Origin: an uncultured virus (IMG/VR IMGVR_UViG_3300042350_001000)
Lineage: Duplodnaviria > Heunggongvirae > Uroviricota > Caudoviricetes
IMG/VR virus record: IMGVR_UViG_3300042350_001000
DNA length: 64,000 bases
Reading direction: 5' to 3' (one strand)
Shown here: one piece after another, positions 2,936-61,564 of the stretch
Layout: every line of letters starts with the position of its first letter
Position numbering within the stretch: position 1 is the first letter of the stretch
The notes under the pieces: model-generated
Told to the model about the DNA's origin: nothing
Seen by the model: only the letters and a program-made list of their open reading frames with translations
The model's database searches: none
Made by a program: the position numbers and the translations under genes

Positions 2936-2945
2936 AGTTATTTCC

Positions 2946-6041: not shown

Positions 6042-6049
6042 TATTTATC

Positions 6050-6817: not shown

Positions 6818-6819
6818 GA

Positions 6820-13607: not shown

Positions 13608-13608
13608 C

Positions 13609-16218
13609 TTAACTCCACTTAATAATTACGATACCGGAGCCGCCTGCACCGCCAGCGCCTTGATTTTGCGGATTATTTAAGTGACCGCCACCACCACCGC
13701 CGCCACCTGTATTAGCTGTTCCAGAAGACGCAGTTAATGCTGAAGATGCACCATTTCCGCCTCCGCCTGAGCCTCCGGAACCAGCGGTACCAGAGCCACG
13801 AAAACCGCCGCCGCCTCCACCGGCATAAGTTACAGATGAGCCGCTAATTGATGAAGCCGTTCCTGCTCCGCCAGCGCCCCCAACGGTTGTATTCCCATTT
13901 CCTCCGGTTGCAGCAGGACTTAAATTAGAACCACCGCCGCCTCCACCACCAGAATTAGGATCAGCAGCATTATTTCCGTTGCCACCTGCATTTCCTTGAG
14001 ATGGAGAGGTGGATGGGGTATTTCCGGCATAACCAGTTGAATAACTACTAGAACTATGAGTGCCACCACCGCCTGATCCACCAGTAGCGCCAGCGCCAAC
14101 CTCAGACGCGCCAGCGCCTCCACCAGTTGATGTTATTGACGAAAAAACAGAATTGGAACCAGATGTTCCTACGGTTCCAGTACCACTACCGCCTCTATTT
14201 CCTCCAGCACCGCCCCCTGAGCCCCCTGCGCCTACTGTAATCGTATAAGTTGTTCCAGCAGTTACGGAAAATCCCGTGCCTGTTCTAAATCCACCTGCGC
14301 CGCCACCACCGCCAGCCGATCCGCCACCACCCCCACCAGCAACAACGAGGTAATCCACACTCGTTACACCCGGAGGAGCGGTCCACGTTCCTGACGTATT
14401 AAAGATGGCTGTGCCACCACCTGATGGCATGAGGTATGCAATGCCTACGATACCGGAGCCGCCTCCACCTGATGCAGCCGTATAGCTTGTTCCGCCACCA
14501 CCGCCCCCTGTATTTACCGTTCCCGCAGTACCTGCGGTAGAAGGAGAGGCTCTCCCGCCAGCACCTCCACCACCTGAACCCCCTGCGCTAAGACCTCCAA
14601 AAGCCCCGCCTCCACCTCCCCCGGCATAAGTTACCGAAGAGCCAGAAAGGGAAATGGCTGCGCCGTTACCCCCAGCACCCCCAGTTGCCGACGGCGGAGA
14701 TGCGCCCGAAGAACCCCCATACCCAACTTGTGACGCACCGCCGCCCCCGCCAGCCCTACTATCATTTGCGCCTGCTCCGCCACTATTTCCTTGAGCCGGA
14801 CTCACTGAAGGAGTATTGCCAGCACCTCCGGAACCCCCAGGTGCCCCAGCACCTCCACCGCCACCGGAACCTCCGGAATTACCATTTACGGCAGAATTTC
14901 CACCTCCTCCACCTCCGGCAGAAGTAATTGAGGCAGGTGCTCCAATTGAAGAATTTGAACCAGCGTTTCCAATCGTATTACTGGGGCTGACTGCTGCTCC
15001 GCCAGCCCCTACCGTAATCGTATAAGTCGTGCCTGCACTAACTGACAAGCCATTCCCAGTTCTAAGTCCTCCTGCGCCACCACCGCCAGCACCTTCCTGA
15101 TTAGAGGAAGAGTTTGAAGTGGCTCCCGATCCACCCCCGCCAACCACAAAGTAGCTAATCGAAGTAACACCCGTCGGTGCGGTCCATGTTCCAGTAGCCT
15201 TGAACTCTTGGTAAACGTAGCTGTAACCTGTGCCAAGCACTTCAAACGTGCCAGACGACAAAAAGGTATGGATGGTATAGCTGCCACTCGTTGATTTGAC
15301 ACCGCCCATAGCGGTAATGCCAGAAGATGTTAAGTAGCGAACGATTACGATGCCTGAGCCGCCGGAGCCGCTAGAACCAGCATCATAAGGACTTCCGTCT
15401 CTTGTCGCGCCACCTCCACCACCACCGCCCGTGTTTGCCGTTCCAGAAGTTGCTGGTCCCGGCATACTTTGACCACCTGCACCACCGCCGCCAGAGCCAC
15501 CAGCACCAGCTGCATACGGCCCTCTAGACCCACCCCCGCCGCCCCCTGCGTAAGTTACAGAGGAACCTGAAATTGAAGATGCCGTCCCTGCGCCGCCTGC
15601 TCCCCCTGCTGAAGTTGTTCCAACGGAACCGACACCACCTGCACCACCCCCGCCCCCTCCTGCAAATGCCGGGGAGCCGCCATATGGTTGACCATAAGAT
15701 CCTGAGCCGCCGTTGTTGCCTTGAGAAGGAGAAACAGACGGGGTGTTACCTGCACCGCCATTTAACGGATCAGAAGAAGCTGCCGCCGTTCTGCCGCCTC
15801 CCCCGGAACCGCCAGACAAGCCGGTGGAATTAGAAGAACCACCACCACCACCGCCGCCTGTAGACGTTATGGTAGAGAAAACAGAATCAGATCCGCTGTT
15901 GCCTCTGAGCCCAAATCCATCTGCGGCAGCAGGATTTCCTGCGCCTCCAGCGCCTACCGTAATCGTATACGTCGTCCCAGCCGTGACAGAAAAACCTGTA
16001 CCAGTACGAAAGCCACCAGCGCCGCCACCACCAGCATTGTCTACTCCACCACTTCCGCCGCCAGCAACAACCAAATATTCAACGGTAGCAGGGGGCCAAG
16101 CGCCTTGAGCGTTGTAATAGAGCTGTTTGGGTAACGTCCAAATGCCGGAAGCTGAGACTGCACTTACTGTAGGCGCAGTGGCGCTAATGACCCCACCGGG
16201 GTAACCGTGAATGGGCAT
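13609..16218 (-). CDS. Glycine-rich tail fibre/receptor-binding protein (3 Gly-rich modules)
   Basis: Three copies of the same module as 11916..13607; same N-terminal segment. Confidence 0.7.
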   Translation of the reverse strand: MPIHGYPGGVISATAPTVSAVSASGIWTLPKQLYYNAQGAWPPATVEYLVVAGGGSGGVDNAGGGGAGGFRTGTGFSVTAGTTYTITVGAGGAGNPAAADGFGLRGNSGSDSVFSTITSTGGGGGGGSSNSTGLSGGSGGGGRTAAASSDPLNGGAGNTPSVSPSQGNNGGSGSYGQPYGGSPAFAGGGGGGAGGVGSVGTTSAGGAGGAGTASSISGSSVTYAGGGGGGSRGPYAAGAGGSGGGGAGGQSMPGPATSGTANTGGGGGGGATRDGSPYDAGSSGSGGSGIVIVRYLTSSGITAMGGVKSTSGSYTIHTFLSSGTFEVLGTGYSYVYQEFKATGTWTAPTGVTSISYFVVGGGGSGATSNSSSNQEGAGGGGAGGLRTGNGLSVSAGTTYTITVGAGGAAVSPSNTIGNAGSNSSIGAPASITSAGGGGGGNSAVNGNSGGSGGGGGAGAPGGSGGAGNTPSVSPAQGNSGGAGANDSRAGGGGGASQVGYGGSSGASPPSATGGAGGNGAAISLSGSSVTYAGGGGGGAFGGLSAGGSGGGGAGGRASPSTAGTAGTVNTGGGGGGTSYTAASGGGGSGIVGIAYLMPSGGGTAIFNTSGTWTAPPGVTSVDYLVVAGGGGGGSAGGGGGAGGFRTGTGFSVTAGTTYTITVGAGGSGGGAGGNRGGSGTGTVGTSGSNSVFSSITSTGGGAGASEVGAGATGGSGGGGTHSSSSYSTGYAGNTPSTSPSQGNAGGNGNNAADPNSGGGGGGGSNLSPAATGGNGNTTVGGAGGAGTASSISGSSVTYAGGGGGGFRGSGTAGSGGSGGGGNGASSALTASSGTANTGGGGGGGGHLNNPQNQGAGGAGGSGIVIIKWS

Positions 16219-20610: not shown

Positions 20611-21009
20611 TTAGCATTTCCAGCGCCGTAGGGACGCTTTGGCGCGTTCAGCAGGTCCCTTGGCATTATCCACTACCCCTTGCATCCTGGCGCAAAAGGA
20701 GCGCTTTCTAGCGCCTCCTTCGGGCTGTGGAGCCTTCAGGTTTGATCCTGTTTCTCGGTTGTATTTCGCTCTACCCTTGGCGGTAAGACCCGCTCCTTGA
20801 GAGACTGGAAGCTTTTCGCCACGGCCGACCGCAAGGCTCGGACCGCCCTCTTTAAGGCGCTCAGGAAGTTTTGCATAGGACTTTCCCCCGACGTTGGATT
20901 TGGTGTACTCAGACCCTACGCTCGGCTTGATACCGACCTTCTTGGCGAACGAGGGGTTATGGGCCACCGCCTGCATCAGACGGAACTGCTCTTTCGATTT
21001 AGCAGGCAT
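20611..21009 (-). CDS. Basic virion protein
   Basis: Lys/Arg-rich; GLTAKGRAKYN...RKRSFCARM...SLRRWKC; contains LKEGG. Confidence 0.55.
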   Translation of the reverse strand: MPAKSKEQFRLMQAVAHNPSFAKKVGIKPSVGSEYTKSNVGGKSYAKLPERLKEGGPSLAVGRGEKLPVSQGAGLTAKGRAKYNRETGSNLKAPQPEGGARKRSFCARMQGVVDNAKGPAERAKASLRRWKC

Positions 21010-22177: not shown

Positions 22178-22753
22178 TCAGCACGCGCCGCCGTAGGCCT
22201 TCTTAGCAATCCGACCGCCCTTTTTGTGGGTGTCGGCAAGCTTCGTAATGTACGGAGGTTTGGTAGCAGGCACCTTCGGGTACTTCACTGCCTTGCCGTC
22301 GTCCTGAAGTCCGCCCTTCTTGAACTTTTGGATAACGCCACCGGTCGCGTACGCCTGAATAACGCCGCCGGTTGCATAGGCTGCAACACCACCCGATTTA
22401 AGGCCTTTATGCGCCTTGGAAGCAGGCTTGTCCTCGTGGGACTTGAGTTCCTTCTTGATGCCTTTCATCTCGGCCATTTCGGCCTTGTGCATCGACTTGG
22501 ACTCAACTTCGCCGCCCTTCTTGCGCATCATTGGACCGCGCATACCGCCTTTAGGCACGGTCATCTTGGGAGCGATACCACGACGTGCTGCCATGGGGAT
22601 ACCACGCTCTGAAGGCTTTGCAGCCGCAGGCATACCCATAGCGTCGGGCATCCCGCCCATCGCTTTACGTTGCACATGGCCACCCTTCTTCAGCTTTAAC
22701 TCCACTGAAGGCTCGGTGGTCATCATTTTCACCATCGGCTTGAACTGACCCAT
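22178..22753 (-). CDS. Lys/Met-rich internal virion protein built from about 10 xxxGG motifs
   Basis: LKKGG, KAMGG, VPKGG, RKKGG, LKSGG, YATGG x2, FKKGG, HKKGG, KAYGGAC. Confidence 0.65.
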   Translation of the reverse strand: MGQFKPMVKMMTTEPSVELKLKKGGHVQRKAMGGMPDAMGMPAAAKPSERGIPMAARRGIAPKMTVPKGGMRGPMMRKKGGEVESKSMHKAEMAEMKGIKKELKSHEDKPASKAHKGLKSGGVAAYATGGVIQAYATGGVIQKFKKGGLQDDGKAVKYPKVPATKPPYITKLADTHKKGGRIAKKAYGGAC

Positions 22754-22763
22754 GATCCGCTCC

Positions 22764-23156
22764 TTATGCGAACGACTTGTAGACGATCGTCACACGGGCA
22801 GCGCCTGCACTTGCTGCTGTGCCGGTCTGGCTAAAGGTCACGGTTGCATAGTCAATATCGCTGGTACCCACGTTAGCCCAGGCGCTGTATACGCCGGTCG
22901 TAGCGACCGAAGCGCGTCCAGCAGAGCCAACCGAAGTAGCAGCAACAAACGCCGCGGCAGAGCCCGTCTTGCCAACCGTGACCGTATTGGTCGTGCCAGC
23001 ATTGAAGGCGGTCGTTACATCGATATTGACATCAATGATCTGAGCGCCTGCAGGGATCGTACCAATGGTGACAGCAGACGTGTCGGTATAAGCGATCGTT
23101 GCGGTGATCGCCGATAACTGACCTGCTGCATTGGTCACACTGTTGTTGTACGCCAT
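22764..23156 (-). CDS. Capsid decoration-like protein
   Basis: 130 aa, IPAGAQII...TAFNAGT pattern; first gene after the capsid gene; GGAG RBS. Confidence 0.5.
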   Translation of the reverse strand: MAYNNSVTNAAGQLSAITATIAYTDTSAVTIGTIPAGAQIIDVNIDVTTAFNAGTTNTVTVGKTGSAAAFVAATSVGSAGRASVATTGVYSAWANVGTSDIDYATVTFSQTGTAASAGAARVTIVYKSFA

Positions 23157-23176
23157 TTCTTTCTCCTGAAAGGAGA

Positions 23177-23190
23177 GGGGCCGTAGCCCC
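23177..23190 (-). terminator. UNCG-tetraloop hairpin after the major capsid gene
   Basis: GGGGC-TACG-GCCCC on the minus strand, weak U tract. Confidence 0.5.
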
Positions 23191-23198
23191 CCTTCGGT

Positions 23199-24113
23199 TT
23201 AGACGCCAGGAGTGCCGTACATAGCACGCGGGTCGGTCCAGCCGATGTCATAACGCTCGGTGGCCTTGTAGCGCATGGAGTCGGTTTCAAAGTCACCTTC
23301 CATGGTCTTCTCAAGGGCACGGCGCATCATCAGCTTCATACCTTCCGGAGCATCGGTCTGCACCCACCATGCGGTAGGCGAGGTCAAACGGCTGATAACC
23401 GAAGCGCCCTCGGACAGCAAGCCAATCGATTTGATCGGGTTGATGTCGTTGTTTGCGGTACCAGCACGCAAGACGCTCTTAAGCAGGACTTCTGCCTGGA
23501 ACGTGTTGCCGGGTGCTACAACAAGCTTCAGCGGGTTCAAACGGATCTTCTTGCCGTTGTTGTCAACAGCTTGACGGATCTGGATGAGCATTTGCTCGAG
23601 CGACGTTTGCGAGAGGTTCGCGGCGGTCGTAAGCAAGTTGCTGAAGGTGCCACTAACGATGGGGTGCGAAGCGGAGTTCAAGGGAACGCCATCACCACCG
23701 TTATAGCCTGCCGTAAAGGCGCGGTTGAGCACGTTGGCTGCCAAGGTCTCCTTGGTCTCGACGAGAGACTGTGCGAGGTGCTTAGCATAGACCTGACCAA
23801 TACGGATATGGTCACCGTCTTCCACGAGCACTTTGGTCAAGGCGAAGGCAAGGCCATACACCTTATAGACGTAGCGCTTGAGGAAGAGCACGCCGCCCTG
23901 CTGATATGTGACGGGAGTACCGTCAGGCATCTCAGGGGCTGCACCAAAACCGTAAAGGACCGGCTCTTCATGGTAGTTGCGGGGGATACCGTTCTGCTCA
24001 CGGAAAACGGTAGACCATTCATCGGCTCTCTGGTCGTAAATGCCGTCGAACGATTCGTTAAGGATCGGTTCGACAATCGACCGAAAGTCGGTACTGCGCA
24101 TCGGGGCTGCCAT
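23199..24113 (-). CDS. Major capsid protein (HK97 fold, Mu gpT-like family)
   Basis: 304 aa; E.....GFG.A, DGVPL.S..HP, LS.TSLE, DF.T....YKA.ERY..GW.DPR..YG motifs; follows scaffold genes. Confidence 0.85.
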   Translation of the reverse strand: MAAPMRSTDFRSIVEPILNESFDGIYDQRADEWSTVFREQNGIPRNYHEEPVLYGFGAAPEMPDGTPVTYQQGGVLFLKRYVYKVYGLAFALTKVLVEDGDHIRIGQVYAKHLAQSLVETKETLAANVLNRAFTAGYNGGDGVPLNSASHPIVSGTFSNLLTTAANLSQTSLEQMLIQIRQAVDNNGKKIRLNPLKLVVAPGNTFQAEVLLKSVLRAGTANNDINPIKSIGLLSEGASVISRLTSPTAWWVQTDAPEGMKLMMRRALEKTMEGDFETDSMRYKATERYDIGWTDPRAMYGTPGV

Positions 24114-24126
24114 GTTCTAGCCCTCC

Positions 24127-24723
24127 TTAAGCGATGGTTACAGGGTAGGCCTTAGCCGAACCCGTGTAAATGGCGCCGAACTGATGTTCAGCAATCTGCG
24201 CACGCACGATGACATAGGTGTCACCCCAAGCATTGTCGGGATAAGGTGCAATGTCGATAACGCGCATTTGTGCGGAGGCGTTTGCGGCGGCTGCAGTCGT
24301 GCTCAGCATGCAAGCAGACAGACCCGTGGTCGTGCTTCCGGCCGTCGTAGAGGCGAGGTCGTATTCCTGGCCGATCGCGGTTTGTGCGATAGTGGCGTTG
24401 GTTTGGATCTCGTACACGATAGCGGGATCGCTGTAGAAGTACGCAACGATCTCAGTACCGGAAGTGGAAGCAGGCCAGTAGTTGGAAACACGGCGACGAC
24501 CAGTGGTGTCGGTGAATTCAACGCCTGCGAAACAGCCTACAAAAGCGTCACCAGCAGCGGCAACTACGATAGCGCCGGTGCTGACGTCGATCTTGACAGG
24601 CTGACCCTTGAGGATGTTCGTCGCGTAACCCGACGTAATGCCATTGGCGATTGCTTGCGCACGGTCCAACCCAGACGGGTGGAACGCAGGCCGCATGCCA
24701 AAGGCAGCAGAGGTAGCACTCAT
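24127..24723 (-). CDS. Minor capsid / head cement protein
   Basis: FGMRP..., I..G.PV, DP...YEIQ pattern; immediately upstream of the capsid gene. Confidence 0.55.
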   Translation of the reverse strand: MSATSAAFGMRPAFHPSGLDRAQAIANGITSGYATNILKGQPVKIDVSTGAIVVAAAGDAFVGCFAGVEFTDTTGRRRVSNYWPASTSGTEIVAYFYSDPAIVYEIQTNATIAQTAIGQEYDLASTTAGSTTTGLSACMLSTTAAAANASAQMRVIDIAPYPDNAWGDTYVIVRAQIAEHQFGAIYTGSAKAYPVTIA

Positions 24724-24742
24724 TTGTCAGACTCCTGAGGTT

Positions 24743-25279
24743 TCAACCCTCGAATACCGGGGGTCGAGTTGGTTGGTCAAAATTCATCCCGTCGCCCTCA
24801 ACCATCCCAAGCCGTCTGCCGTTTGAGTCGCGTGCGCCTTGCAACTGCTCGACTTGCACCCGGATTTTTTCCTGCTCTTCCAGGGGCGCCTCGAAGTGAG
24901 CCTGCGTCATGTAGTCCTGATAAATGTCCATTGGAAGCTTGAACAAGATCATTTCATTACATGCTACAAACCCTGCAAACTCGCCTGCTTTCACTTTTAG
25001 ATGCTCAAAGCCGGGAAGATCATCAGCTTTAACAGGCTCGTAGCCCAGGCGCATCCGCTTGTGAATCGGATCATACGAATTGGTAGTCGATAGCCAACAA
25101 AGGTGGAAGCCGGGAATCTCCGGCGGCGTCGGGAGAGCCTCCTGTAGCCACTCCGACCGGAACATCTTCCGACGTTCCCCCGCAAAGGCAAAATCTGCCT
25201 CAGGTGCGTCACGCTGTCGATCCTCGGAAGCCCGAGAGCGTCGGCCAGCGTCAGAATTCTTTCTAAGCCTATCGTCCAT
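24743..25279 (-). CDS. Head-morphogenesis protein of unknown function
   Basis: LP.PP..G....W, GYEPV, L.L.K.P pattern; GGAG RBS before ATG 25279. Confidence 0.5.
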   Translation of the reverse strand: MDDRLRKNSDAGRRSRASEDRQRDAPEADFAFAGERRKMFRSEWLQEALPTPPEIPGFHLCWLSTTNSYDPIHKRMRLGYEPVKADDLPGFEHLKVKAGEFAGFVACNEMILFKLPMDIYQDYMTQAHFEAPLEEQEKIRVQVEQLQGARDSNGRRLGMVEGDGMNFDQPTRPPVFEG

Positions 25280-26252
25280 TTCCACTCCTTTGTTGTTCAC
25301 GGTCGAAATCCATGAAGCGTTTGATCATCTTCATGCGTTGTTCCTTGTTGTCCCACATTCCAGCTTCCTTGATCGCAGCCACCCGTTGGGGTGAGAGTAA
25401 AAACTCGTTGCTGCTACCCGAGGTGCTCGAACTGGACCGCTCGGAACCCGTTACAACAGAGCGTGGTCTCGGACGACTATTGCTCTTGCCTTGATTGTAA
25501 CGATGAGGAAGGTACTTTGACAAGCGTTCATCAAGCTCGTCCCAATACTCCTCGGTTGATGGGTCGTATCCCTCTTCGGCCATGGCTTTATCGATCTGAA
25601 GTGCTACTTTGGAATCGGTATCGCGGCCCTTGGGGTCGTACCACCGGTTTTTGGACATCCAATCGGACGCTAGGCGCTGCATATCGGGGTCCGGCGGCTT
25701 AATTCCCGAGGTCTCGATCTGCCTGGAGGCCTGATGCTTGAGGTTTTGCAGCGCTTCGACCTGCCGCTTGGCCTCGTACATGGCTTCCTGGGCGTTTACC
25801 ACCCCATCACCGTCGCCTGACTCGACCGCTTCTTTCAATTTCATCTGCGTCCAGCGCAACCGGACGTCAGCATCCTCGATAGCCTTGTCCACTCGAGCCA
25901 TTTCTGCCCCGGAGGTACGCTTTTCGAGGCTTGCAAGGCGTTCGGCAAGCTCCTGATTCTGCTTTTTGAGCGAGGAAATCAGGTGGTAGTTGTGGCGCTT
26001 CTCTTCTTTACCCAATTGCCGCTTAAGTTTGCGCTCTTCGCGCCTTGCGGCTCGAATTGCCTCGCGATCGGGGTCCGAAGGGTCGATGTCATCGTCTTCG
26101 TTATTGTTAACAAACCCGTTATGAACCGAAATATCCGGCTCCGGAGGGGTCTGATCGATGGGCTCAACGCTATCGGGCAGTTCAACAATGGCCGAGCCAT
26201 CGTTTGCCTCCTGGACGTTAAGCTGCATTTCTAGCTTGTCGCTTGCATTCAC
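25269..26252 (-). CDS. Scaffolding protein
   Basis: Acidic N-terminus, long coiled coil, W...N.WY, Y..ELD.RL; between portal and capsid genes. Confidence 0.65.
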   Translation of the reverse strand: MNASDKLEMQLNVQEANDGSAIVELPDSVEPIDQTPPEPDISVHNGFVNNNEDDDIDPSDPDREAIRAARREERKLKRQLGKEEKRHNYHLISSLKKQNQELAERLASLEKRTSGAEMARVDKAIEDADVRLRWTQMKLKEAVESGDGDGVVNAQEAMYEAKRQVEALQNLKHQASRQIETSGIKPPDPDMQRLASDWMSKNRWYDPKGRDTDSKVALQIDKAMAEEGYDPSTEEYWDELDERLSKYLPHRYNQGKSNSRPRPRSVVTGSERSSSSTSGSSNEFLLSPQRVAAIKEAGMWDNKEQRMKMIKRFMDFDREQQRSGNGR

Positions 26253-26268
26253 GGTTTTCTCCCAAAAC

Positions 26269-26685
26269 CTAGATGTAAATGTGCATCGTCAAGGGGTCCA
26301 TCGTGACCTTGGCGATGATTTCGTGGTCGTTGAAGATGCAAAACAGCGCCTTTTCATCGCTTCCGGGTACCGCAACCTCCCATCGATCCCCGCCCCACTT
26401 GGGAACGCGGACGAATTCGCCGACTTCGCACCATGAGCCTTCAGGCCAGGGGTCCATCGAGTCGCGTTTACGGAAAGCAAGGGGACCGATAGCGATAACC
26501 TTGGCCACTTGGCTGTTCCACTTCTCAACCTCTTTGGTCTCTTCGACCAAAACGATGCCCGAGGACGTCGTTTTCTTCTTGGGCGACTTGATCTGAACGA
26601 GCAATCGAGCGCCTAAGGGTGCTGCACCTGGGTGAACTTCAGGAAATGCTTCCCGAATCGCCGCTTCATTCGAAGCGTTAGTCAT
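26269..26685 (-). CDS. groES: Phage GroES-like co-chaperonin
   Basis: PLGARLLV, KTTSSGIVL mobile loop, VIAIGP, VGEFV, ND.EII. Confidence 0.85.
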   Translation of the reverse strand: MTNASNEAAIREAFPEVHPGAAPLGARLLVQIKSPKKKTTSSGIVLVEETKEVEKWNSQVAKVIAIGPLAFRKRDSMDPWPEGSWCEVGEFVRVPKWGGDRWEVAVPGSDEKALFCIFNDHEIIAKVTMDPLTMHIYI

Positions 26686-26860
26686 ACTGATCCTCCGTTA
26701 AAAGTTGGTCGATAGCCTTCAGAGCTTGTTCAAGCCCTCGGTATTCACCTACGAGGCGCTGATACACCTCGTAACTGTTGGCATTACCGTTCGCCAAGGA
26801 GGTTGCAATATCAGCCTGCAACCCCTTGATGATCCCGATAAGCTGCGAAAAGTCGTTCAT
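26678..26860 (-). CDS. Small helical head-region protein
   Basis: 60 aa, Y...VG...GL pattern; between portal and GroES. Confidence 0.55.
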   Translation of the reverse strand: MNDFSQLIGIIKGLQADIATSLANGNANSYEVYQRLVGEYRGLEQALKAIDQLLTEDQYD

Positions 26861-27012
26861 TTGCGCTTAAGTGCTTCCTTCTCGTAGGGGCGCAGGTTGG
26901 GCGACTCATCCTTCTTCTTGTTGGGCATAGGACGGCCGCCGTTCTTAAGCTTTTGGCCGGTCAGCTTTTCGCCCATAGCAAGACGCTTGTGCATGTTGAT
27001 TGCTTCGCTCAT
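26857..27012 (-). CDS. Small basic protein (51 aa) with LKNGG motif
   Basis: Hand-translated MSEAINMHKRLAMGEKLTGQKLKNGGRPMPNKKK...; ATGA-coupled to the next gene; GGAG upstream. Confidence 0.55.
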   Translation of the reverse strand: MSEAINMHKRLAMGEKLTGQKLKNGGRPMPNKKKDESPNLRPYEKEALKRK

Positions 27013-27014
27013 TT

Positions 27015-29495
27015 TCAAACTCCAAAGGTTCGTTGTGCAGCCTCTTGCGCGGCCATAGCGGTGCGCTCTTGCTCTTGGGTGAGTGCTGCGTTCTCACCGG
27101 CAATTTTTGCCGCCTCGATCTGCTGGCGGGTAAGGTTATCCTCGACGTTCATTGCGATGTCGGCCTGGATCTTCTGGGCGTTTTGCGCCACGTCGGTATC
27201 TTGCTTTTCCTTCTTCAGCATGAGTTCGCCCTGATCCTTTTGGGCTCGGCGCTGGGTTTCTGCCATCGAAGTCTGAACAAGGGCCTCGACCTCCGGCGGT
27301 ACCGGTGGCTTGGGCTGCATTTGCTGCGCGATCTGCATAAGCTGCTGGAGGATCGGCATCATCGGCTCAAAGGTCTCGGCCGAGTCGATATGAACGTGCC
27401 TTGCAACCGCGGACATGAGTTGCTGGGCCTCCTCGAAGATCGGCGTGACCTTCAGGGTGTCCATATCCTTGACCTCGGTGGCGTTGATGTACTCGCTCAT
27501 CCGCTTGAGGTACCAGAGCGTTAAGTGCTGCTTGGCATGTTCAAGCATGGCCGGTACGAACTTCTGCCCGATGATCGGATTCATGCCGTAGACCGGGTCC
27601 ATGGCGTAGGCCAAGTGCGTCTGCAAGTGCGCGATATGGTCCTGGTTCGGGAAGGCTGCGACCGGCTGTCCAAGGGACATGGCCACGTTCTCGAGCGCAG
27701 GGTTCATCTCCTTGACTTCGCGGACATCCGGCAGGACCTGATTGATCTCGGGCACCTTCATCTGCTTCAAGATCCGCTTCATGACCTCCCGGCGATCAAA
27801 TAGGTCGGGGTTGTCCTTAGCGAGGGCGGCCAGGGCTTGGTTTTGGGCAAAGCGCTGGGTCTCGCTGAAGATATGCGGATCAGAAACGGGGACGATGTCG
27901 GTGTTGCGGTCAAAGTCCTGGCGACCAATGACGAGGTCCTCGACCATATCGCCCTTGCGCATATCCTCGAGCCACCAGCGATTGATCCTGCCAAGGACCA
28001 TCAGCATCTTGCGCATGGACTTGTGCAGTCTCATGTGAATGCTGGAGTAGACCGCGGCTCCCTGCTCGATCAAAGCCTGGGTGGTTCCGACCGGTGCGTT
28101 GTTGGATATGTCGGCGATCTTCTCTTCGCTCGTTGTTACGACGCCCTTGGCCGCGTTGGTAATCCAGCCCAGCAACTCGAAGAGCACGGGCGACGGCGGA
28201 TTGAAGGGGAAGGGCATGGCGATCTTCTTAATATCGTCAACGCCTGGGGCTCCCTCGATCTCGGCAACCTGGGTGGGCTCAACCTGCACGCTCTGGCCTG
28301 TTATACGGGCTCCCTTGAGCTTGAGCATGGTCGGTGAGTTGTTGATATGGGCAGAGTCCAAAAGGGCTCTCAGGGCCCCTGTAAGGGCCGCAGACAGGCC
28401 TCCAATCAACTGAGGCAAACCGATCGCATAAGCGCCGCGCCAGGGAATGAATTTGAACTCAATGAGCCAGTCGAGCTTTTGCATTTGCTCGTCGCCCTCC
28501 TCCCAGTTACGGTAAAGGCCGACCACCTGCCGGGACTGCTCGTCGATCATCAGGATGTAGGGCGCAAGGTCGCCAGCCTTGTCGTCGTCCTCTATCGTAA
28601 GGTTGACGTAGGAATGGAAGACGCGACGCTCACCGTCGATGTTCTCGGCGCTTGACTTCTTGCCCTCGATCTTTTCGTTGGCCTTTTGCGCGGCCGTGGG
28701 CTCGGGCTCCATACTGGCGCGGGTATAGGTAACGTCCAGGTAAAGGTTTGCAGCGATCCGGCGGTTGAACTCCTCCTCGGATATATCCTGCATTTCAGTG
28801 CAACGCTGAGCGGTATAAAAGCTTGGCGCGGAGAAGGGCAGCAGGATCTTATCGATGGGCACAAACTCGGCGCAGGGACGCTTCTTTTGCTCGTCATACC
28901 AAAGCTTCAGGTACTGGCTTCCACCAAGGGGAAGCTGGGTAGCAAGCTGCTCGAGTTCATCGCGAAGCTCTTCGATCTGCTCGGTACACTGCCAGTTCAT
29001 GAAGTCACGCTTACGCTCAGCAAGGTTTTGCTTTTGCTCAGTAACCTCGCCAAGGATTTTTGTACCTACAGGACCATCGGGCGGCATGATCTCTTTCATG
29101 CACCGGCTGGCAAAATCCACGCAGGCTTCGGCAATTACTGGGTGTACAGCCTTGGATGCGCCCTGGAAGGTTGCACCGCCTGGAGCCTCGTTACCAAGAC
29201 CGGACCGCTTTAAGCCTTCCTCGTACTGCTTATCGCGCTCCTTGCGGGCCTCCATGTCCTTCTCGAATAGCTGAAGGTACTTAAGCGCGAGGTCGTCCAG
29301 GGTGTTTGGATCGATCTTGGCTGCAAGGTTTTCATAGAACTGCGGATCTTCTTCCGGACCGTCGTTCTCGGTCATGCGGACAACAGCCGACCCGTCCTCG
29401 AGTTCTTCGACATCGGGCTTCTCGTCAAATAGCTTGTAGATCGTCTCGTCGCCCTCGGGGCTTTCCTCAAGGGGTAGATTCATTTCGATCGCCAT
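27015..29495 (-). CDS. Portal protein (P22-like with C-terminal barrel coiled coil)
   Basis: 826 aa; F.GAS...HP..AEA, APVGTT.AL.E.G, VSDP..FS..QR; Gln-rich C-terminal helix. Confidence 0.85.
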   Translation of the reverse strand: MAIEMNLPLEESPEGDETIYKLFDEKPDVEELEDGSAVVRMTENDGPEEDPQFYENLAAKIDPNTLDDLALKYLQLFEKDMEARKERDKQYEEGLKRSGLGNEAPGGATFQGASKAVHPVIAEACVDFASRCMKEIMPPDGPVGTKILGEVTEQKQNLAERKRDFMNWQCTEQIEELRDELEQLATQLPLGGSQYLKLWYDEQKKRPCAEFVPIDKILLPFSAPSFYTAQRCTEMQDISEEEFNRRIAANLYLDVTYTRASMEPEPTAAQKANEKIEGKKSSAENIDGERRVFHSYVNLTIEDDDKAGDLAPYILMIDEQSRQVVGLYRNWEEGDEQMQKLDWLIEFKFIPWRGAYAIGLPQLIGGLSAALTGALRALLDSAHINNSPTMLKLKGARITGQSVQVEPTQVAEIEGAPGVDDIKKIAMPFPFNPPSPVLFELLGWITNAAKGVVTTSEEKIADISNNAPVGTTQALIEQGAAVYSSIHMRLHKSMRKMLMVLGRINRWWLEDMRKGDMVEDLVIGRQDFDRNTDIVPVSDPHIFSETQRFAQNQALAALAKDNPDLFDRREVMKRILKQMKVPEINQVLPDVREVKEMNPALENVAMSLGQPVAAFPNQDHIAHLQTHLAYAMDPVYGMNPIIGQKFVPAMLEHAKQHLTLWYLKRMSEYINATEVKDMDTLKVTPIFEEAQQLMSAVARHVHIDSAETFEPMMPILQQLMQIAQQMQPKPPVPPEVEALVQTSMAETQRRAQKDQGELMLKKEKQDTDVAQNAQKIQADIAMNVEDNLTRQQIEAAKIAGENAALTQEQERTAMAAQEAAQRTFGV

Positions 29496-32400
29496 GATTT
29501 CCTCATCATTTCAAGACGCATAGCGTCGGTATCGGGCTCTCCGCCCTCTTTGTAGCCACGCAACGCCCTCATAAGATCTTCGTGGGTCGTCTTCTCGTCG
29601 GCTACTTTATCCCAGACCGCGTGATGCGCTAGGTGCTGGTAATACGGGTCAAGCGATGGATCAATATCAAGGCCAAGTGCAGACTGTCTGGCCGCCAAGC
29701 GATCGACCGCCTCACGAGCGCCCAGCCCCTTACCCCTTTGCATCATCGTCTGGGGGGCTACAGGGCTGTCCAGGGAGTGCAGGTTAAGCTGCCTTGCGTC
29801 CAGGGTAGGTAGGTCCCCACGGCCCAGCATCGAGCCTATAAAGCCGCTTTTAGCGCCTGCTATGCCCTTAATGCTTTCGGCCCAGTCGCGATACTCATCA
29901 GCCGATCCAACGAGCGCCTGCTGCATTTGCGGGACCAGGGTCGACATGTTGTTGACGCCATACCGAAGCTGCTCGGTAAGCTGGTTGGCTTTGCCGAAGG
30001 GTGCGAACTTAGCCCGAATGTCGTCCAGGGCCTTCTCGTTGACTACGCCACGCTCGGCGTCGTCGAGGAACTTCTGCCCCTGCTTGGAGCCCAGCCATTC
30101 AGCGAAGGCGCCCTCCGGCCTTACCAGCCCTTCGGTCTTCGGCACCTTTAAGCCTGCCTTGGTTGCCGTGTCGTAGGACAGACCGCCGCGGCCAATGCTC
30201 GACTGCGTAATACCGTAGGCCTTGATCAGGTCCCGGACTCCAAGGTTACCGGCCCTGGCTCGTTTGCCCTGCTCAATCATGAAGTCTCCGTACCCGCGCT
30301 GGATGTAATCCGGGACTTCGGCAAGGTTAAGCTGCTTGTTAACCTCGGCCAGAGGCCTCCACTGCCACTCCTGGATCTTGGTGGCCTGGGGGTCTTGGAA
30401 CTTGGCGATAGCCTCAGACGCACGCTTAAGCTTTTTTGCACCGCCTGCCGCCATTTTCACCACCCCTCCATGTTTATACGGGATGGGCTGGCTAAATTTC
30501 TCACGGATCTCGGGGGTGATGTCGAACCCGATCTGGTTCATGGACTTGGTCTTGCTGTACAACTCGTCAAGGTATTGCTCGGCCCTTTCAAGGCTTCGGA
30601 ATCCAGGATGATCTGGTATCGCAATGTCGGTGTCAGCGTCGACCACATAGTACCGATCGCCTTGCAGCGAAAGATCAAGCGGCCGTTGTTGCGTAATGCC
30701 TGGGATGGTCCGGACATTGTCCTTGCCAACCAGAGCCTTGAGCCTGCCGGGGACGATCTCGTCATAGAATTTGCGCATTCCTGCTTCTGTGGATTCGCCC
30801 TTAGCGTCTTGCGGAAAGCGCAGGAAGGACTTGTACCCGTCTATGAATGCAACGCGGTCGTAGCCCTCATCAACTGCACGCTTGATGATGTTCTTCAGGG
30901 ACAGGTCAACCCATTCGTTGGTATTTTTGATAAATGGCCCAGCAGGAGGGCCATACTGCTTCGCATCGTGAAGTTTATTCATCTCCTTAACGAGAACATT
31001 TTCTCTGTCAGCCAAAGCTTTGTATTCATCTTGGCGCTGGGGATCAACTACTAATTCACTGCGCTTAGCAACTACATTACGATGCTCTTCAGCGAGTTTA
31101 TTGAATCGATCTTCTAATGTTGGATCGTCTTTGAACCCATGCTTACGCCCCTCCTGCGCCCAGTCAGACTGAAGCTCTTCAATGAAAAGCACGTTCTTAC
31201 CTTCAGCATCCACACGGTCATTCATCCTAATATGGGATATGACATTGGGGTCCGACCAGTGAGACGAGCGGAAGTCTTTTGATGTCTCTTCAAATATGCG
31301 TCTTGATTCATTTGCAACCTGTTGCTTTTCATCCTCTGACAAAAAGCGCATCTCCTTATTAAACAAAGACATTGCTATGTCATTTGTGTTTGGGGATTTT
31401 TTTGGGACCTTGAGCAAGACCTCGCGATAGTTCTTGCCTCCAGGCTCTTGGTACTCGTGATACTCGGTCAGCCGCTCCCCAGGCTTGGTGCCATAGCTGT
31501 GAGTCCGGCTGAACTTGTTGATGTCCTCTTCGGCCTTCATCGCAAACTCGGCCGCATCGAGGTCGTTCTCCGCAAGGGCCTTCTGATAACGCTCATCGGC
31601 AAGCTTGCGCAACTGAATGATCTGCCTATAGTCATTGACATTCAGGTCTGGCATGTGCAGGTCGGCAAACCCTTTCATGTAGGGCGGTATGACAGATCTG
31701 CTCAGGACCACCTCCTCAACATCGGGCATGGTGCCCTTGGTCATAGCCTGGACTTCCTCACGCGTGACGTTGGGCGCGGCGGCAAGCTTTTGAGCTAGGC
31801 CTGCATCCTCAAGGCGCTGCTTGCTGATCCCTGCTTTGGTGAACTCATTGAGGAAGGCCTGCCCTGGTCCCTGCTTGCGCTGCAAGGTGGTGGCCATTTC
31901 TTCGATGGGGTTGTAAAAGCCAAGCCTGCTGACCGGAGCATTGACGTTCATGGGCGAGACAAAACTTAAAGCGTTTGCAAGTGGGCCCTGTCCGAACATG
32001 GCGCTATCGATTGGGCGAAGGGCTCCCCTTCCCGCCGCCTTGATTGCAGGCATGGCAAATTTGGCGCCTGAGCCAAGCAGTGGCATATACCCAAGAGTAG
32101 CCTCAAGACCTGGACCCGTTATTAGCTCGTAAAGGTCGCCTTTCTTTGCGGCCTCGGACGCTTCGTGATACAGGCGCTCAGGGTCGGGCACAAACATGCC
32201 AACGCTTTTATCCAACAACTGGTTAAGACCTCGTGCTTGCGACTTAGGGGCGCCAAGGGCCTGCAAACCGCTCACCACGGCTCGATCGATCGTGGTTGGC
32301 ATAGCAGACCGCGGCGTCTCGGTCATTTGCGCAGGGTCGGGCTCAATGCGCCTAAGCAGATCCTGGGGCGTTGATCCCATCACGCTCTTGTACCGATTGG

Positions 32401-33211
32401 CCTCCGCGGCCTCACGGCGCATGCGCTCCTGTGCGGCAGCCTTAGCGGCCATGGGATTGAAGTTGAACATCTGGGTGGGGTCGCCACCGTCTTGCATGCG
32501 GATCAGGCCGCCCTCGGCCTTGTTGATGTCCGGGTCGGTTACGTCATAAGTACCCTGATTGCCAAGGTCCGACTTGATTTTCTTCGGGTCGTACACGCCC
32601 AGGTTTTTAACACCCCGTTCTTTAACGAAGAAGCTATCGTGGCCAAGATCCCTTATAACTTGTTGTATATCAGGCCTTTCGATACCGCTCCAGTTATCGT
32701 TTCGCGACGGAAGCTCACGCAAGACTTCTTCAAGATAACGGTGCCTATTAGCATCAAAGGAAGGAACGGCGCCCGAACTGTCGCGAATAAGCGGGAATTT
32801 CTCTTTGTAAAGATTTATAGCGGCTTCGATATGCTCCGGATTGTCGTAATCCCAGGGGTTTTGCGCCTGGACGCGCACAGGATAAACGGTTGGCGCAGTC
32901 CCCGGAGTCACAGCCCACTCCTCCCCAGAATATCTTGATGCAAATTGTGGATCTGGCGTTAAGAAAGCCGCGTCTCGACCTTGTGAGTGCTCAAAGGGCT
33001 TAACTTTGATCTGGGGATAACGCTCCTCCAGTAGTGTTTTTCCGGTTTTGAATTCAACAATACCGGGATTGGTTGACCCGTGGAACATCCGGTCCTTGAT
33101 AAGGCTTGGCTCAAGGAACTTCTTCAGGTTTTCGTCGCGCTCAGCCTTGGTTAAGGCCTTTTTCGCGGCCTTCTTGGGCAGGTTGGCAGTGAACGGGTTG
33201 ATCGGCTTCAT
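29480..33211 (-). CDS. Polyvalent (multidomain) virion cargo protein: ART-like + EExQSDW domain + HhH-GPD glycosylase-like
   Basis: FHGS..F.TP.P..A..Y...IKS..GN.GT.D; GG.NYRE..SHW..H.R..EELQSDW; IKGIAGAKSGF...PTLD. Domains are separated by GG motifs. Confidence 0.65.
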   Translation of the reverse strand: MKPINPFTANLPKKAAKKALTKAERDENLKKFLEPSLIKDRMFHGSTNPGIVEFKTGKTLLEERYPQIKVKPFEHSQGRDAAFLTPDPQFASRYSGEEWAVTPGTAPTVYPVRVQAQNPWDYDNPEHIEAAINLYKEKFPLIRDSSGAVPSFDANRHRYLEEVLRELPSRNDNWSGIERPDIQQVIRDLGHDSFFVKERGVKNLGVYDPKKIKSDLGNQGTYDVTDPDINKAEGGLIRMQDGGDPTQMFNFNPMAAKAAAQERMRREAAEANRYKSVMGSTPQDLLRRIEPDPAQMTETPRSAMPTTIDRAVVSGLQALGAPKSQARGLNQLLDKSVGMFVPDPERLYHEASEAAKKGDLYELITGPGLEATLGYMPLLGSGAKFAMPAIKAAGRGALRPIDSAMFGQGPLANALSFVSPMNVNAPVSRLGFYNPIEEMATTLQRKQGPGQAFLNEFTKAGISKQRLEDAGLAQKLAAAPNVTREEVQAMTKGTMPDVEEVVLSRSVIPPYMKGFADLHMPDLNVNDYRQIIQLRKLADERYQKALAENDLDAAEFAMKAEEDINKFSRTHSYGTKPGERLTEYHEYQEPGGKNYREVLLKVPKKSPNTNDIAMSLFNKEMRFLSEDEKQQVANESRRIFEETSKDFRSSHWSDPNVISHIRMNDRVDAEGKNVLFIEELQSDWAQEGRKHGFKDDPTLEDRFNKLAEEHRNVVAKRSELVVDPQRQDEYKALADRENVLVKEMNKLHDAKQYGPPAGPFIKNTNEWVDLSLKNIIKRAVDEGYDRVAFIDGYKSFLRFPQDAKGESTEAGMRKFYDEIVPGRLKALVGKDNVRTIPGITQQRPLDLSLQGDRYYVVDADTDIAIPDHPGFRSLERAEQYLDELYSKTKSMNQIGFDITPEIREKFSQPIPYKHGGVVKMAAGGAKKLKRASEAIAKFQDPQATKIQEWQWRPLAEVNKQLNLAEVPDYIQRGYGDFMIEQGKRARAGNLGVRDLIKAYGITQSSIGRGGLSYDTATKAGLKVPKTEGLVRPEGAFAEWLGSKQGQKFLDDAERGVVNEKALDDIRAKFAPFGKANQLTEQLRYGVNNMSTLVPQMQQALVGSADEYRDWAESIKGIAGAKSGFIGSMLGRGDLPTLDARQLNLHSLDSPVAPQTMMQRGKGLGAREAVDRLAARQSALGLDIDPSLDPYYQHLAHHAVWDKVADEKTTHEDLMRALRGYKEGGEPDTDAMRLEMMRKSWRSK

Positions 33212-36200
33212 TTGCGCCCTTTCACTATGCCGCCCTTCTTCTTGCTCAGTTTGACGCCCTGGACGTCGGAGCCTTTGGGCGCGATTAGTAAGGATTCGTA
33301 AACGTCGTGGGGCATCTTGCTCGACTTCATGGACATGCGCCCAACGATGTCGCCAATCCCGAAGACATCGCCCTGGCTCTTCGGCCTAAGGGTTGGGTTG
33401 TCGCCCGTCATGGTATTGAACATTTCGGCAGGCGTGGCGTACTCAGTGGCCAGCCCGTACTTGTGTCCCATGCCCGATTGCTCGATGGCCACGAGGAAGT
33501 CCAGGTCCTTGAGGATTGGATCGCCTTCGGTCTCGTAAAGCTGTTTGCGCACGAGGTTTGACTTGGTGATCGAGCCCTTCTTGCGGTCGCCAATGGTGAG
33601 GTCCGTTTCCTTCTCGGCGCTCATCATGGGCCTGCCGGTATTCGGGTTGATCAGTACACCGACGTCCTGCATGACCTTCTTGTCCATGACCTCGCCGGTA
33701 CGCGGGTTCACAAAGGCGCCCGAGTAAAAGTCCGAGCGCTTCATGTTGTTGACCTCGAGAACCTTCTCGACAAGCTTTTGCACGTTCGGGTTGTTCTTGG
33801 GATCAAGGAACCACCGGCTAGGCATCGGCAGGAGGTTGACGCGATCGGGCTGAGTCAGCCTGCTTGCGATGTCCATAGTGGGATCGATGGCCGACGTGAT
33901 GGTCTGCTTGGCAGGCTTAGCAAGGGCCTGGAGACCGCTTACTATGGCCTTGCCGCCTGCTTGCATCTTCTTAACCTTGCCGCCCTTCTTGTAGCCAGCC
34001 TTTTGAAGCTTGGTCAGCAACTCTTCGGATAGGAACTGGGAAGGCGCATAGCCTCGAGTCCAATCCATGTATCCAGGCTGACGACCCTTCTCGGTAAGGA
34101 CCTTGTTGATGTAGTCCTCCATTAGCAGTTCTCGTGGCGCAGGCATGAAGCTGACGCCAAGATCCTCGCCTTTGAGGATGGTCGGGAAGGCCGGGTGAAG
34201 GTCGGGCCTGTCCATCATCTCGCCGCTAAGCTGGAAGAGGCGGTTGCCAAGCGAACCTGTCGGCACTTCCAAGAGCGCCGGATCTGTCGTGCGCTGAATG
34301 ATCCGATCGTAATCGAAGATCTGACCTTTCTTACCGCCAACGCCGATACCTCCCATGACGTCAGCAGCGGCTGCGCGTTTATCGAAAGTGTCGACAAGCT
34401 TGCGGAACTTCCTGGGGTTCGTAATGTCGACGTCGGCCGGGAATAGGTTCTTGCCCTCCTTATCGACCACCGAGGCAAGTTTTGCGTTCAGGGTGTCTTT
34501 GAGTTCGGGCGTAAGCTTTTCTTGCTTAACGCCGCCCATAAACTCCTTGTAAAGGCGGTCAAATACCATTTGGTTCGACTTGTGCTGGGTCGGTGTTCCG
34601 AGCATGGTCGTCCAGATCGCTTGGCCTTCAGGCACGCGGCGATTGGACCCTATGATGGTCTGACCCACTCCAGGCGTCTTAACGCCCCAGGTCGCACCGG
34701 CATAACGCGGGTCGGTAAGCTGAATACCTGAGAATCCCGGACCGCCAAGAAATCCCTCTCCGACTTTAGTTCTATCGGCCTGGGTGATCATCAGTGTCTT
34801 GCCTTCGTGCTTACCCAAAGCTTCGGACGGTAGGATGAGACCAGTCTCGGTGATCTCCAGGATTCTCTTCTCGATGTCCTTGGGCATTTCCATGTTCAAG
34901 CCAGTCTTGCCCTGGAAGCTTTGACCAGGAAGGGCCTTAAAAGCCTTCTCAGCGGCCTTCTTGGCTAAGCCACCGCCTGCCATGCTTACGAGGCCGCCTC
35001 GAGCACCGCCCTGGTAATTGCCAGGATCGTCCGGTTTGGCTGTAGGTACGATCGGCGTCGTTGAGTCGACCGTGGTGGCTGTTGGGTCGGTAACCGCTGG
35101 GCTGGTAACCGTCGGACTGGTCGTCGTAGATCCCGCAGGCGGGACGTAGGTCGACAGCTTGGGTGCCAGGGCATTCAGGCGTGCGGTCTTGGCGGCTGCC
35201 AATTGATTCTGACGGGCAAGACGATCAGCGCCTTGATTGGCAAACTGAGCGGCTCGGTTTTTGGCCATCAGGCTCGAAGCTGCATCCCTTGCTACGGACT
35301 GCTGTCTCATTTGGCCCAGGCCGGTCGCTATGGGATTGATTCCCCTGTAAGGAATACCGCCAGCAGCCATATGCACGAGACCGCCTGCTGAATTGTCTGC
35401 ACGCCACTGGTCGACGCCAGTTGCGCCTATGCCATCGTCAGCGTGGGTACCGTCAACATAACCGCCGTTCGCAAAGCCACGGCCGGACATATCCTGGGCT
35501 ACGCTCGGATCGTAGATTGCATAAGCCTTGCCCGTCGCGTTGGGCATTTGAGTCCCGGCAAAGCCAGCGTCGAGGATCTCCTGGCGGATCATATCCTTGC
35601 CGATCCCTGGCTTGACCATGGCCTGCCTGCGCAGCATGTCGTAGTAGTCAAGGCCTTCCATTTGGCCTTGGGGCGTGTCATACATCTTGTCGAACATCAG
35701 CATTCGGTTGCGATCAACGTCGACAGGCGTGACGTTAGCTCCAGGCTGATTGCCGGTGAACTTGTTGGCGTACCGGGGAAGCTCTGCCGTATAAAAGGCG
35801 CGACCCATCGAGGCGTGGGGATCTGCCCTCATGATGTCGAACTTACCCTCGATCGGGATACGCTGGCCAGAGTAGACGCGCATGAAGTCGGGCTCGGGCC
35901 CCTTGAGTACCTCGGCTACCGGCTTGGGCGCCTTGGGCATCATGGACTCGACCTTCTGCATGTTGTTTAGCCTGCCTGCCATCTTTTGCAGCGCAGCATT
36001 GGTCCCAGCCCCTCCGGCCATCGATGCAGGGACTGACCCAAAGGTCTGGCCCATCTGAGCCGTGTGAGCGCGGTCAGGCTGCGTTAAAGGGTTCGGGGTC
36101 ATGCCTCGTAAGGCGTGGCTCATTTCTTCGCTTGTAGGCCCTTGTAGGCCCCTTGCAAGCATGGCTGGCATGAAGCCTGCCGTCTTGATGTTGCTCAGCG

Positions 36201-36333
36201 CCTGGGTAAGGTCGCCTGCCGTACCCAAGCCTTCTGCCAGGGCGCCTCGTACCGCACCGCGGCCCATGTCGGCTAGGCCTTGCAGGGCCTGGGGAATGAA
36301 CGTCGGATTCTTCTGGGCGCGTGGGTTTGGCAT
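33208..36333 (-). CDS. Polyvalent virion cargo protein: divergent ART-like domain + two unassigned globular domains
   Basis: VYSG..F....MGRAFYT....A..F...GFAG...AIYDP, followed by two domains delimited by GG doublets. Confidence 0.55.
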   Translation of the reverse strand: MPNPRAQKNPTFIPQALQGLADMGRGAVRGALAEGLGTAGDLTQALSNIKTAGFMPAMLARGLQGPTSEEMSHALRGMTPNPLTQPDRAHTAQMGQTFGSVPASMAGGAGTNAALQKMAGRLNNMQKVESMMPKAPKPVAEVLKGPEPDFMRVYSGQRIPIEGKFDIMRADPHASMGRAFYTAELPRYANKFTGNQPGANVTPVDVDRNRMLMFDKMYDTPQGQMEGLDYYDMLRRQAMVKPGIGKDMIRQEILDAGFAGTQMPNATGKAYAIYDPSVAQDMSGRGFANGGYVDGTHADDGIGATGVDQWRADNSAGGLVHMAAGGIPYRGINPIATGLGQMRQQSVARDAASSLMAKNRAAQFANQGADRLARQNQLAAAKTARLNALAPKLSTYVPPAGSTTTSPTVTSPAVTDPTATTVDSTTPIVPTAKPDDPGNYQGGARGGLVSMAGGGLAKKAAEKAFKALPGQSFQGKTGLNMEMPKDIEKRILEITETGLILPSEALGKHEGKTLMITQADRTKVGEGFLGGPGFSGIQLTDPRYAGATWGVKTPGVGQTIIGSNRRVPEGQAIWTTMLGTPTQHKSNQMVFDRLYKEFMGGVKQEKLTPELKDTLNAKLASVVDKEGKNLFPADVDITNPRKFRKLVDTFDKRAAAADVMGGIGVGGKKGQIFDYDRIIQRTTDPALLEVPTGSLGNRLFQLSGEMMDRPDLHPAFPTILKGEDLGVSFMPAPRELLMEDYINKVLTEKGRQPGYMDWTRGYAPSQFLSEELLTKLQKAGYKKGGKVKKMQAGGKAIVSGLQALAKPAKQTITSAIDPTMDIASRLTQPDRVNLLPMPSRWFLDPKNNPNVQKLVEKVLEVNNMKRSDFYSGAFVNPRTGEVMDKKVMQDVGVLINPNTGRPMMSAEKETDLTIGDRKKGSITKSNLVRKQLYETEGDPILKDLDFLVAIEQSGMGHKYGLATEYATPAEMFNTMTGDNPTLRPKSQGDVFGIGDIVGRMSMKSSKMPHDVYESLLIAPKGSDVQGVKLSKKKGGIVKGRK

Positions 36334-56836: not shown

Positions 56837-56854
56837 TACTATCTCCGATTAAGA

Positions 56855-57829: not shown

Positions 57830-57831
57830 GA

Positions 57832-61563: not shown

Positions 61564-61564
61564 G

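Follow-up and report, generated by a model that had tools for sequence, protein, structure and literature searches.

We examined a 64,000-nucleotide stretch of DNA from an uncultured virus (IMG/VR record IMGVR_UViG_3300042350_001000; Caudoviricetes), called the window throughout, in which a short di-glycine peptide recurs. The peptide has the form (aromatic/Met/Lys)-(Ala/Lys)-x-Gly-Gly-x-(Val/Ile), is seven residues long and often doubled, and is probably an address or processing tag with which nearly all folded modules of the head-internal, injected proteins end. The reading that we rank first, with a probability of roughly 0.4, is that of a modular C-terminal docking tag for incorporation into the virion, because the motif is kept at free protein ends, is conserved on both sides of the Gly pair, occurs in multivalent form and is accompanied by no protease that we could find.

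The original prediction, made from the letters alone, had reported about 35 copies of the pattern [YFMLK][AKQ]xGG. We counted 34 matches in the 52 called genes of the window against 9.5 expected from within-protein shuffles, a frequency above what composition predicts, and all the example coordinates translate as written. The excess was significant in four proteins: the ejection protein encoded at 3..1772 (3 matches against 0.2 expected), a repeat protein of 191 amino acids (aa) at 22178..22753 (7 against 0.42, with 10 Gly-Gly dipeptides in all) and two cargo proteins, cargo 2 at 29480..33211 (5 against 0.35) and cargo 1 at 33208..36333 (6 against 0.78). Other copies that had been listed stood at the chance level with the window taken alone, namely LKEGG in 20611..21009 (p 0.14) and those in 2946..6041 (3 against 0.86, p 0.05) and 57832..61563 (2 against 1.42, p 0.42), as did five in the Gly-rich fibre proteins at 11916..16218. 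The major capsid protein had one match (Y70..G74, invariant in 25 relatives) and one replication protein a single match, while the portal, the terminase, the scaffold-like protein and the remaining early genes of the window had none. Motif codons vary from copy to copy, and selection therefore acts on the peptide. The sites below were read from the translation; those of cargo 1 were also placed on an AlphaFold2 model, with the predicted local distance difference test (pLDDT) as its confidence measure.

33208..36333, minus strand: cargo 1, with domain A at about aa 498-781, domain B at about aa 835-1020 and six motif matches
35356..35475, minus strand: FANGGYV and AGGLVHMAAGG, in the N-terminal, predicted disordered part of cargo 1
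34969..35004, minus strand: doublet ARGGLVSMAGGG, in a predicted disordered linker of cargo 1 (segment 391-497, pLDDT <50)
33952..33993, minus strand: doublet YKKGG..MQAGG, immediately behind domain A in cargo 1
33223..33243, minus strand: KKKGGIV, the C-terminal motif of cargo 1, with a basic end of 4 residues behind it
32483..32521, minus strand: doublet KAEGGLIRMQDGG, behind the ART-like part of cargo 2
30440..30478, minus strand: doublet YKHGGVVKMAAGG, in cargo 2
29483..29554, minus strand: putative C-terminal tag of cargo 2, made of the motif and an amphipathic helix tail with a basic end
1347..1487, minus strand: MAYGG and doublet YADGGMVAFAGGG, in ejection protein 3..1772
4146..4490, minus strand: YAGGPIALAEGG and YAEGG, in ejection protein 2946..6041
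58060..58152, minus strand: two copies, one of them YAVGG, close to the C-terminal end of ejection protein 57832..61563 (second variant)

A search with cargo 1 of 1.84 billion representative sequences gave 523 matches, in which domains A and B appeared in many architectures, and we counted the motif in the 150 homologues listed. It was present in 146 of these, with 590 copies against 77 expected, and Val or Ile stood two residues after the Gly pair in 374 of the 590. The claim that the motif lies at domain ends and C-termini held in the same homologues: against a background of 10% for a random stretch of 35 residues, the motif followed the end of domain A in 85 of 111 matches and that of domain B in 44 of 49. 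Among the 85, 69 were at one identical offset; much of this fixed-offset count is inheritance with the domain, and the counts are not independent events. One and the same peptide terminates the two domains, which are unrelated. When His was allowed in the first position, the motif was kept both where the domain was terminal (46/50 for A, 18/21 for B) and where a further module lay downstream (58/61 and 26/28, respectively); it behaves as a tag owned by each module and not as a joint.

With the original pattern, the motif lay within the last 35 aa in 90 of the 150 proteins and within the first 35 aa in 13. Two proteins of different phages, the homologue P0101 and a protein of phage L073, stop exactly at the Val/Ile after the Gly pair. 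L073 is a more distant IMG/VR phage of 53.6 kilobases (kb), whose capsid protein is 68% identical to that of the window. There domain A is encoded behind a lysozyme-like protein as the last part of the ejection operon, not in the terminase-portal interval, which links the gene sets for cargo and ejection.

The AlphaFold2 model of cargo 1, built from 30 sequences, reached a pLDDT of about 90 in domain A (498-781). All six motif sites fell in segments with pLDDT <50, which the model suggests are probably disordered; such values extend over 56% of cargo 1, and six of six is thus only mildly informative. In the doublet after domain A, the residues G784, G785, G793 and G794 were nearly invariant among 30 homologues. 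A Foldseek search of the PDB with the cargo 1 fold returned no match, and comparison of domain A with VIA-wide gave weak PUA/YTH-like rows (Z 6.8, root-mean-square deviation 3.9, 131 aligned residues, with a helical insert) that are too weak to assign a function. Domain A (33994-34842, aa 498-780) is itself widespread, occurring in >400 proteins at E 1e-30 or better.

The tails that follow the Gly pair measured 9-42 aa and were of few kinds, some brief and basic, others amphipathic helices that begin with Asp. For the open reading frame (ORF) just upstream of the portal gene we collected 25 distinct tails, of which 23 had the motif within the last 40 residues. Three amphipathic-helix types, with 8, 7 and 6 members, accounted for 21 of the 25, cargo 2 belonging to the eight-member type. 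We also considered mimicry of the C-terminus of the scaffold-like protein by the cargo tails and discarded it, the likeness being vague and seen by eye only.

A similar distribution was observed in 12 divergent relatives, picked by length and divergence from about 76 loci. Copies numbered 47 in the repeat protein (2.6 expected) and 39 in the ORFs that separate terminase from portal (5.9 expected), while we found no copy in 8139 aa of portal, none in 5432 aa of large terminase (TerL) and a single one in 13,940 aa of early ORFs. The relatives' cargo ORFs that lack sequence similarity to the window cargo all contained the motif. Only cargo, ejection and small basic proteins are enriched; together with the counts in the window, this upholds the earlier view that the motif is specific to internal virion proteins.

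The window phage is podovirus-like, and its head genes all lie on the minus strand, where the two cargo genes are found between terminase and portal.

37744-38187, minus strand: small terminase
36342-37775, minus strand: large terminase
33208-36333, minus strand: cargo 1, 1041 aa, between terminase and portal
29480-33211, minus strand: cargo 2, 1243 aa, between terminase and portal, its 3′ end abutting the portal gene
27015-29495, minus strand: portal protein (phrog_1216), with an acidic N-terminus
26857-27018, minus strand: basic ORF of 53 aa after the portal gene, with one motif, LKNGG
26269-26685, minus strand: Cpn10-like protein
25269-26252, minus strand: scaffold-like protein
24743-25300 and 24127-24723, minus strand: two conserved head proteins
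23199-24113, minus strand: major capsid protein of HK97 type (Phage_capsid_4 by Pfam)
22178-22753, minus strand: basic repeat protein of 191 aa, downstream of the capsid gene

Genes for neck, fibres and lysis follow downstream of the head genes, as does an ejection module at 3-8742. The repeat protein has an isoelectric point (pI) of 10.2, 10 Gly-Gly sites and Cys as its last residue, and its homologues carry 9-14 motif copies; the pI of cargo 1 is 9.5. In the window and four relatives Cys is the last or third-from-last residue of the repeat protein, whose first ~25 residues are highly conserved. The DUF6321 protein (20611-21009) similarly has a Cys at or near its C-terminal end. At the position of the 53-aa ORF (26857..27018), the relative L069 has an ORF of 122 aa with 4 motif copies. 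The N-terminus of cargo 2 gave a weak match to ART-PolyVal (PF18760, E 1.5e-4, 23 bits, below the 31.2-bit cut-off). The Cpn10/GroES-like gene (26269-26685) stands between the portal and scaffold-like genes, a frequent position of the prohead protease, and every relative has kept it, Caulobacter phage RW and Planktothrix phage Pag-Yong1 among them. A resemblance of the motif to the GroES mobile loop, together with this gene, had suggested mimicry of the loop; we rejected it since the first residue after the Gly pair is mixed and only the second is hydrophobic, which leaves no hydrophobic triplet. Among the fibre genes, a 2OG-Fe(II) oxygenase gene (11056-11658, PF13759) adjoins those of two very Gly-rich fibre-like proteins (11916-16218, PF21722; 563 and 869 aa).

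Close relatives are uncultured phages of 57-59 kb, and GenBank MW202545.1 is syntenic with the window. A search of genome contigs with the portal returned no relatives; in tblastn against cultured phages cargo 1 gave no match and the repeat protein one, in its N-terminal part. In Pag-Yong1, whose capsid protein is 39% identical, copies of the motif end the post-capsid and ejection proteins.

The motif had also been claimed for both of two divergent tail modules, and it is indeed present in both, at 1-8742 and 53795-63879, about 55 kb apart (640/695, 1031/1243, 388/324 and 590/595 aa). Their status as two modules of one phage stands less well: complete related genomes of 57-59 kb hold a single version of the ejection module, in which the 695-aa type is 94-99% identical, and judged from these genomes the window is probably longer than one genome and contains two joined variants of a single locus. 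The product of 57832-61563 contains a run of >>100 Gly-Ser dipeptides preceded by PTGG and GETKT repeats. Its C-terminal region matched lambda gpH at the level of the motif (BLASTP, E 0.013-0.037). Homology of this C-terminus to gpH was considered and rejected, the BLASTP matches being of motif length only, with none in Pfam at E 10 or better.

As a docking tag, the peptide would hang on a disordered linker at the C-terminal end of every cargo module that folds on its own. During procapsid assembly, a conserved, many-copy site of the head would bind it in trans, both loading and holding the cargo. The 191-aa protein, with 7-14 copies, may be a multivalent occupant or bridge of the tag-binding sites, and once assembly or delivery is over the tag could possibly be shortened at the motif or next to it. 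The most likely receptor would be the inner face of the HK97-type capsid protein or, for the helix tails, the portal. We place the capsid protein first among the candidates because a conserved peptide needs a conserved site. Capsid identity is 77-88% in phages with portals 43-66% and scaffold-like proteins 30-48% identical, and all motif-bearing phages examined share this capsid family at 39-100% identity. The family comprises >7271 clusters at 90% identity, some from ocean surveys, and the capsid protein has no sequence relative in the PDB. On the side of the peptide, conservation extends to both flanks of the Gly pair, with Val/Ile at the second position after it, which fits a bound peptide. 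Docking is further favoured by crAss001 gp45, in which one copy closely follows the portal-bound domain, and by the cargo tails encoded just before the portal gene, most of which combine motif and helix. Complex prediction with three capsid copies and residues 766-812 of cargo 1, run without controls, gave a score of 0.00, which is evidence neither way.

Several points weigh against docking. The receptor is as yet a candidate that we infer, the fixed-offset counts owe much to common descent, and low pLDDT is too widespread in cargo 1 for the placement of its six sites to count heavily. Caulobacter phage RW shares the head module (capsid protein 78% identical) but lacks a cargo gene in the terminase-portal interval and has only 2 weak copies of the motif, so the motif is not required by the head genes. 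Two tape-measure proteins rather favour processing. T5 pb2 is cut after R1127 (PMC10038345), and this residue is followed by A-E-G-G-M-M, the motif lying at aa 1128-1134 of a protein with only 5 Gly-Gly sites in 1219 aa; it is the only mapped cut in a phage protein with a motif-like site. About 14 kDa is removed from the Gly-rich C-terminal part of lambda gpH, by an enzyme and at a site yet to be mapped (PMC12617516), and the region that is cut holds two exact copies (aa 732-737 and 778-784). No Pfam family covers the lambda/T5 processing region at E 10 or better.

The strongest alternative is a processing site, at or next to which a host protease or an unrecognised phage protease would cut, releasing modules, removing tails and chopping the repeat protein into basic peptides that line the DNA. 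We take it as a serious competitor, if on balance less likely than not. Besides the T5 cut directly before A-E-G-G-M-M (PMC10038345) and the gpH region with its two exact copies (PMC12617516), the title of a 1973 study cited in PMC10038345 speaks of the host taking part when a T5 tail protein is cleaved, and according to Iyer et al. 2017 polyvalent proteins have to be cut into units (PMC5512222). The segments holding the motif have low model confidence and are predicted to be accessible, and the tails after the Gly pair resemble removable propeptides. However, the T5 cut precedes Ala and does not follow the Gly pair, and it is a single case with a rough chance of about 0.05. The original prediction had seen no recognisable protease, and we found none either: zero peptidase families by Pfam in 53 window proteins, none by PHROGs in 29, no prohead protease in either and no HExxH in window proteins. 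The AlphaFold2 model of 24743..25300 (pLDDT 67), a proposed candidate, matched nothing in the PDB by Foldseek at E 0.001 or better and no protease fold, its best rows being acetyltransferases at E 0.5; a protease search of the Atlas returned nothing named.

The motif itself also argues against a cut. Its register is unlike that of adenain sites, and Val/Ile two residues past the Gly pair is as conserved as the upstream side. Since the L073 protein and P0101 end at this residue, cutting there would be purposeless. More generally, the motif is kept at extreme C-termini, where a cut would release nothing useful, and cleavage that frees effector domains is not supported in the form first proposed. 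Finally, the invariant copy of the capsid protein would need to escape cutting. If processing did occur, the motif would point to where lambda gpH may be processed.

A quite unlikely alternative is an element for threading or ordering, in which the Gly-Gly hinge and one hydrophobic anchor would serve channel docking, chaining or ordered unfolding of ejected proteins. At the level of sequence, the peptide does occur in several proteins that leave the virion via the tail: lambda gpH, T5 pb2, the ejection and cargo proteins of the window and crAss001 gp45, which spans capsid and tail. Also, cargo encoded just upstream of the portal nearly always ends in the motif and a helix. In gp45 we counted 4 copies against 0.89 expected, one of them C-terminal and one 7 residues past the domain 425-552, which sits on the portal in cryo-EM (PMC10172136). 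However, crAss001 gp46, gp47, gp49 and gp50 are ejected as well (PMC10172136) and had no copies. In addition, the reading calls for a sequence-specific hinge. We know of no mechanism that requires one.

Still less probable is a passive flexible linker or recombination joint without a reader, persisting where domains are shuffled. Domains A and B, each followed by the motif, are indeed reshuffled into many architectures, but five positions are conserved across phages with portals only 43% identical, the motif is kept at protein ends with nothing joined to them, 7-14 copies occur in one small protein, and codons differ between copies. A DNA-contact or charge-neutralising element, AT-hook-like, in basic internal proteins is highly improbable: it is favoured by the basic pI of the repeat protein (10.2) and of cargo 1 (9.5) and by the many Lys-flanked copies, but many others are acidic or neutral (YAEGG, YADGG, KAEGG) and lie in acidic proteins of pI 4.6-5.1.

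Docking of the tag and its processing could both be true, by analogy with T4. The selection and loading of injected phage proteins, for instance anti-defence enzymes and polymerases, are understood in very few systems. A conserved seven-residue signal would make this loading, and the disassembly of polyvalent proteins, directly testable, in a capsid lineage of >7271 clusters. A loading tag would moreover offer a handle for engineering phage heads as protein-delivery vehicles. A literature search covering listings and article passages found no published description of the motif.

Among known systems, the adenovirus protease (adenain) cuts (M/L/I)xGGx and pS273R of African swine fever virus cuts GGx, in both cases after the Gly pair; for adenain P4 is hydrophobic, P3 any residue, and P2 and P1 are Gly. 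The likeness, on which a phage analogue had been proposed, is that of Gly-Gly motifs in several internal virion proteins, small basic ones included. The proposed register fails here: P4 is Ala/Lys and the bulky residue stands at P5, one position further from the Gly pair, Val/Ile two residues after the pair is conserved, and the motif is found at extreme C-termini; neither a clan CE protease nor any other was detected by Pfam in the 53 proteins. In T4, internal proteins bear an N-terminal capsid targeting sequence that ends in a gp21 site and is removed by the prohead protease. Here too a short peptide would send unrelated proteins into the prohead, but the T4 signal is N-terminal and single, whereas the present one is C-terminal or internal (last against first 35 aa, 90/150 against 13/150).

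The C-terminal processing regions of tape-measure proteins (lambda gpH to H*, T5 pb2 to pb2C) have the same peptide and belong to proteins that exit via the tail; their similarity to the window ejection protein is at the level of the motif only. Polyvalent proteins (Iyer et al. 2017, PMC5512222) are likewise large, virion-associated and multi-domain, with shuffling effector modules encoded beside head genes. The paper proposes an embedded zincin peptidase (PMC5512222), of which we found none here; the signature itself, ART-PolyVal in cargo 2, is below threshold (23 against 31.2 bits), without HExxH. The words 'glycine' and 'linker' are absent from the text of that paper (PMC5512222).

The closest parallel in make-up is found in encapsulins, whose targeting peptides are C-terminal, follow flexible linkers of 10-20 residues, combine a Gly hinge with hydrophobic anchors and a terminal Lys/Arg, and bind the interior of an HK97-fold shell (PMC7925596). 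As with the native peptide of Thermotoga maritima and with the GSL consensus, the phage tag is a short C-terminal peptide on a flexible linker, with Gly hinge, hydrophobic anchors and often a terminal Lys/Arg, shared by unrelated cargos that enter an HK97-fold shell. Its consensus differs from the GSL type, and only the general make-up is alike (PMC7925596). Moreover, the phage tag is not restricted to C-termini, frequently comes as a doublet and reaches 14 copies in one protein, and the shell that it would bind is a phage head filled with DNA, from which the cargo is ejected. It is a doubtful extension that the peptide is a general cargo-loading tag of tailed phages, covering lambda/T5 tape-measure proteins, podovirus ejection proteins, crAss-type cargo and the abundant ~55-59 kb group, and read as in encapsulins by a conserved pocket of the HK97-fold head or by the portal. 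If so, cargo loading in phages and encapsulins would be two forms of one mechanism, and the motif a portable tag for foreign proteins.

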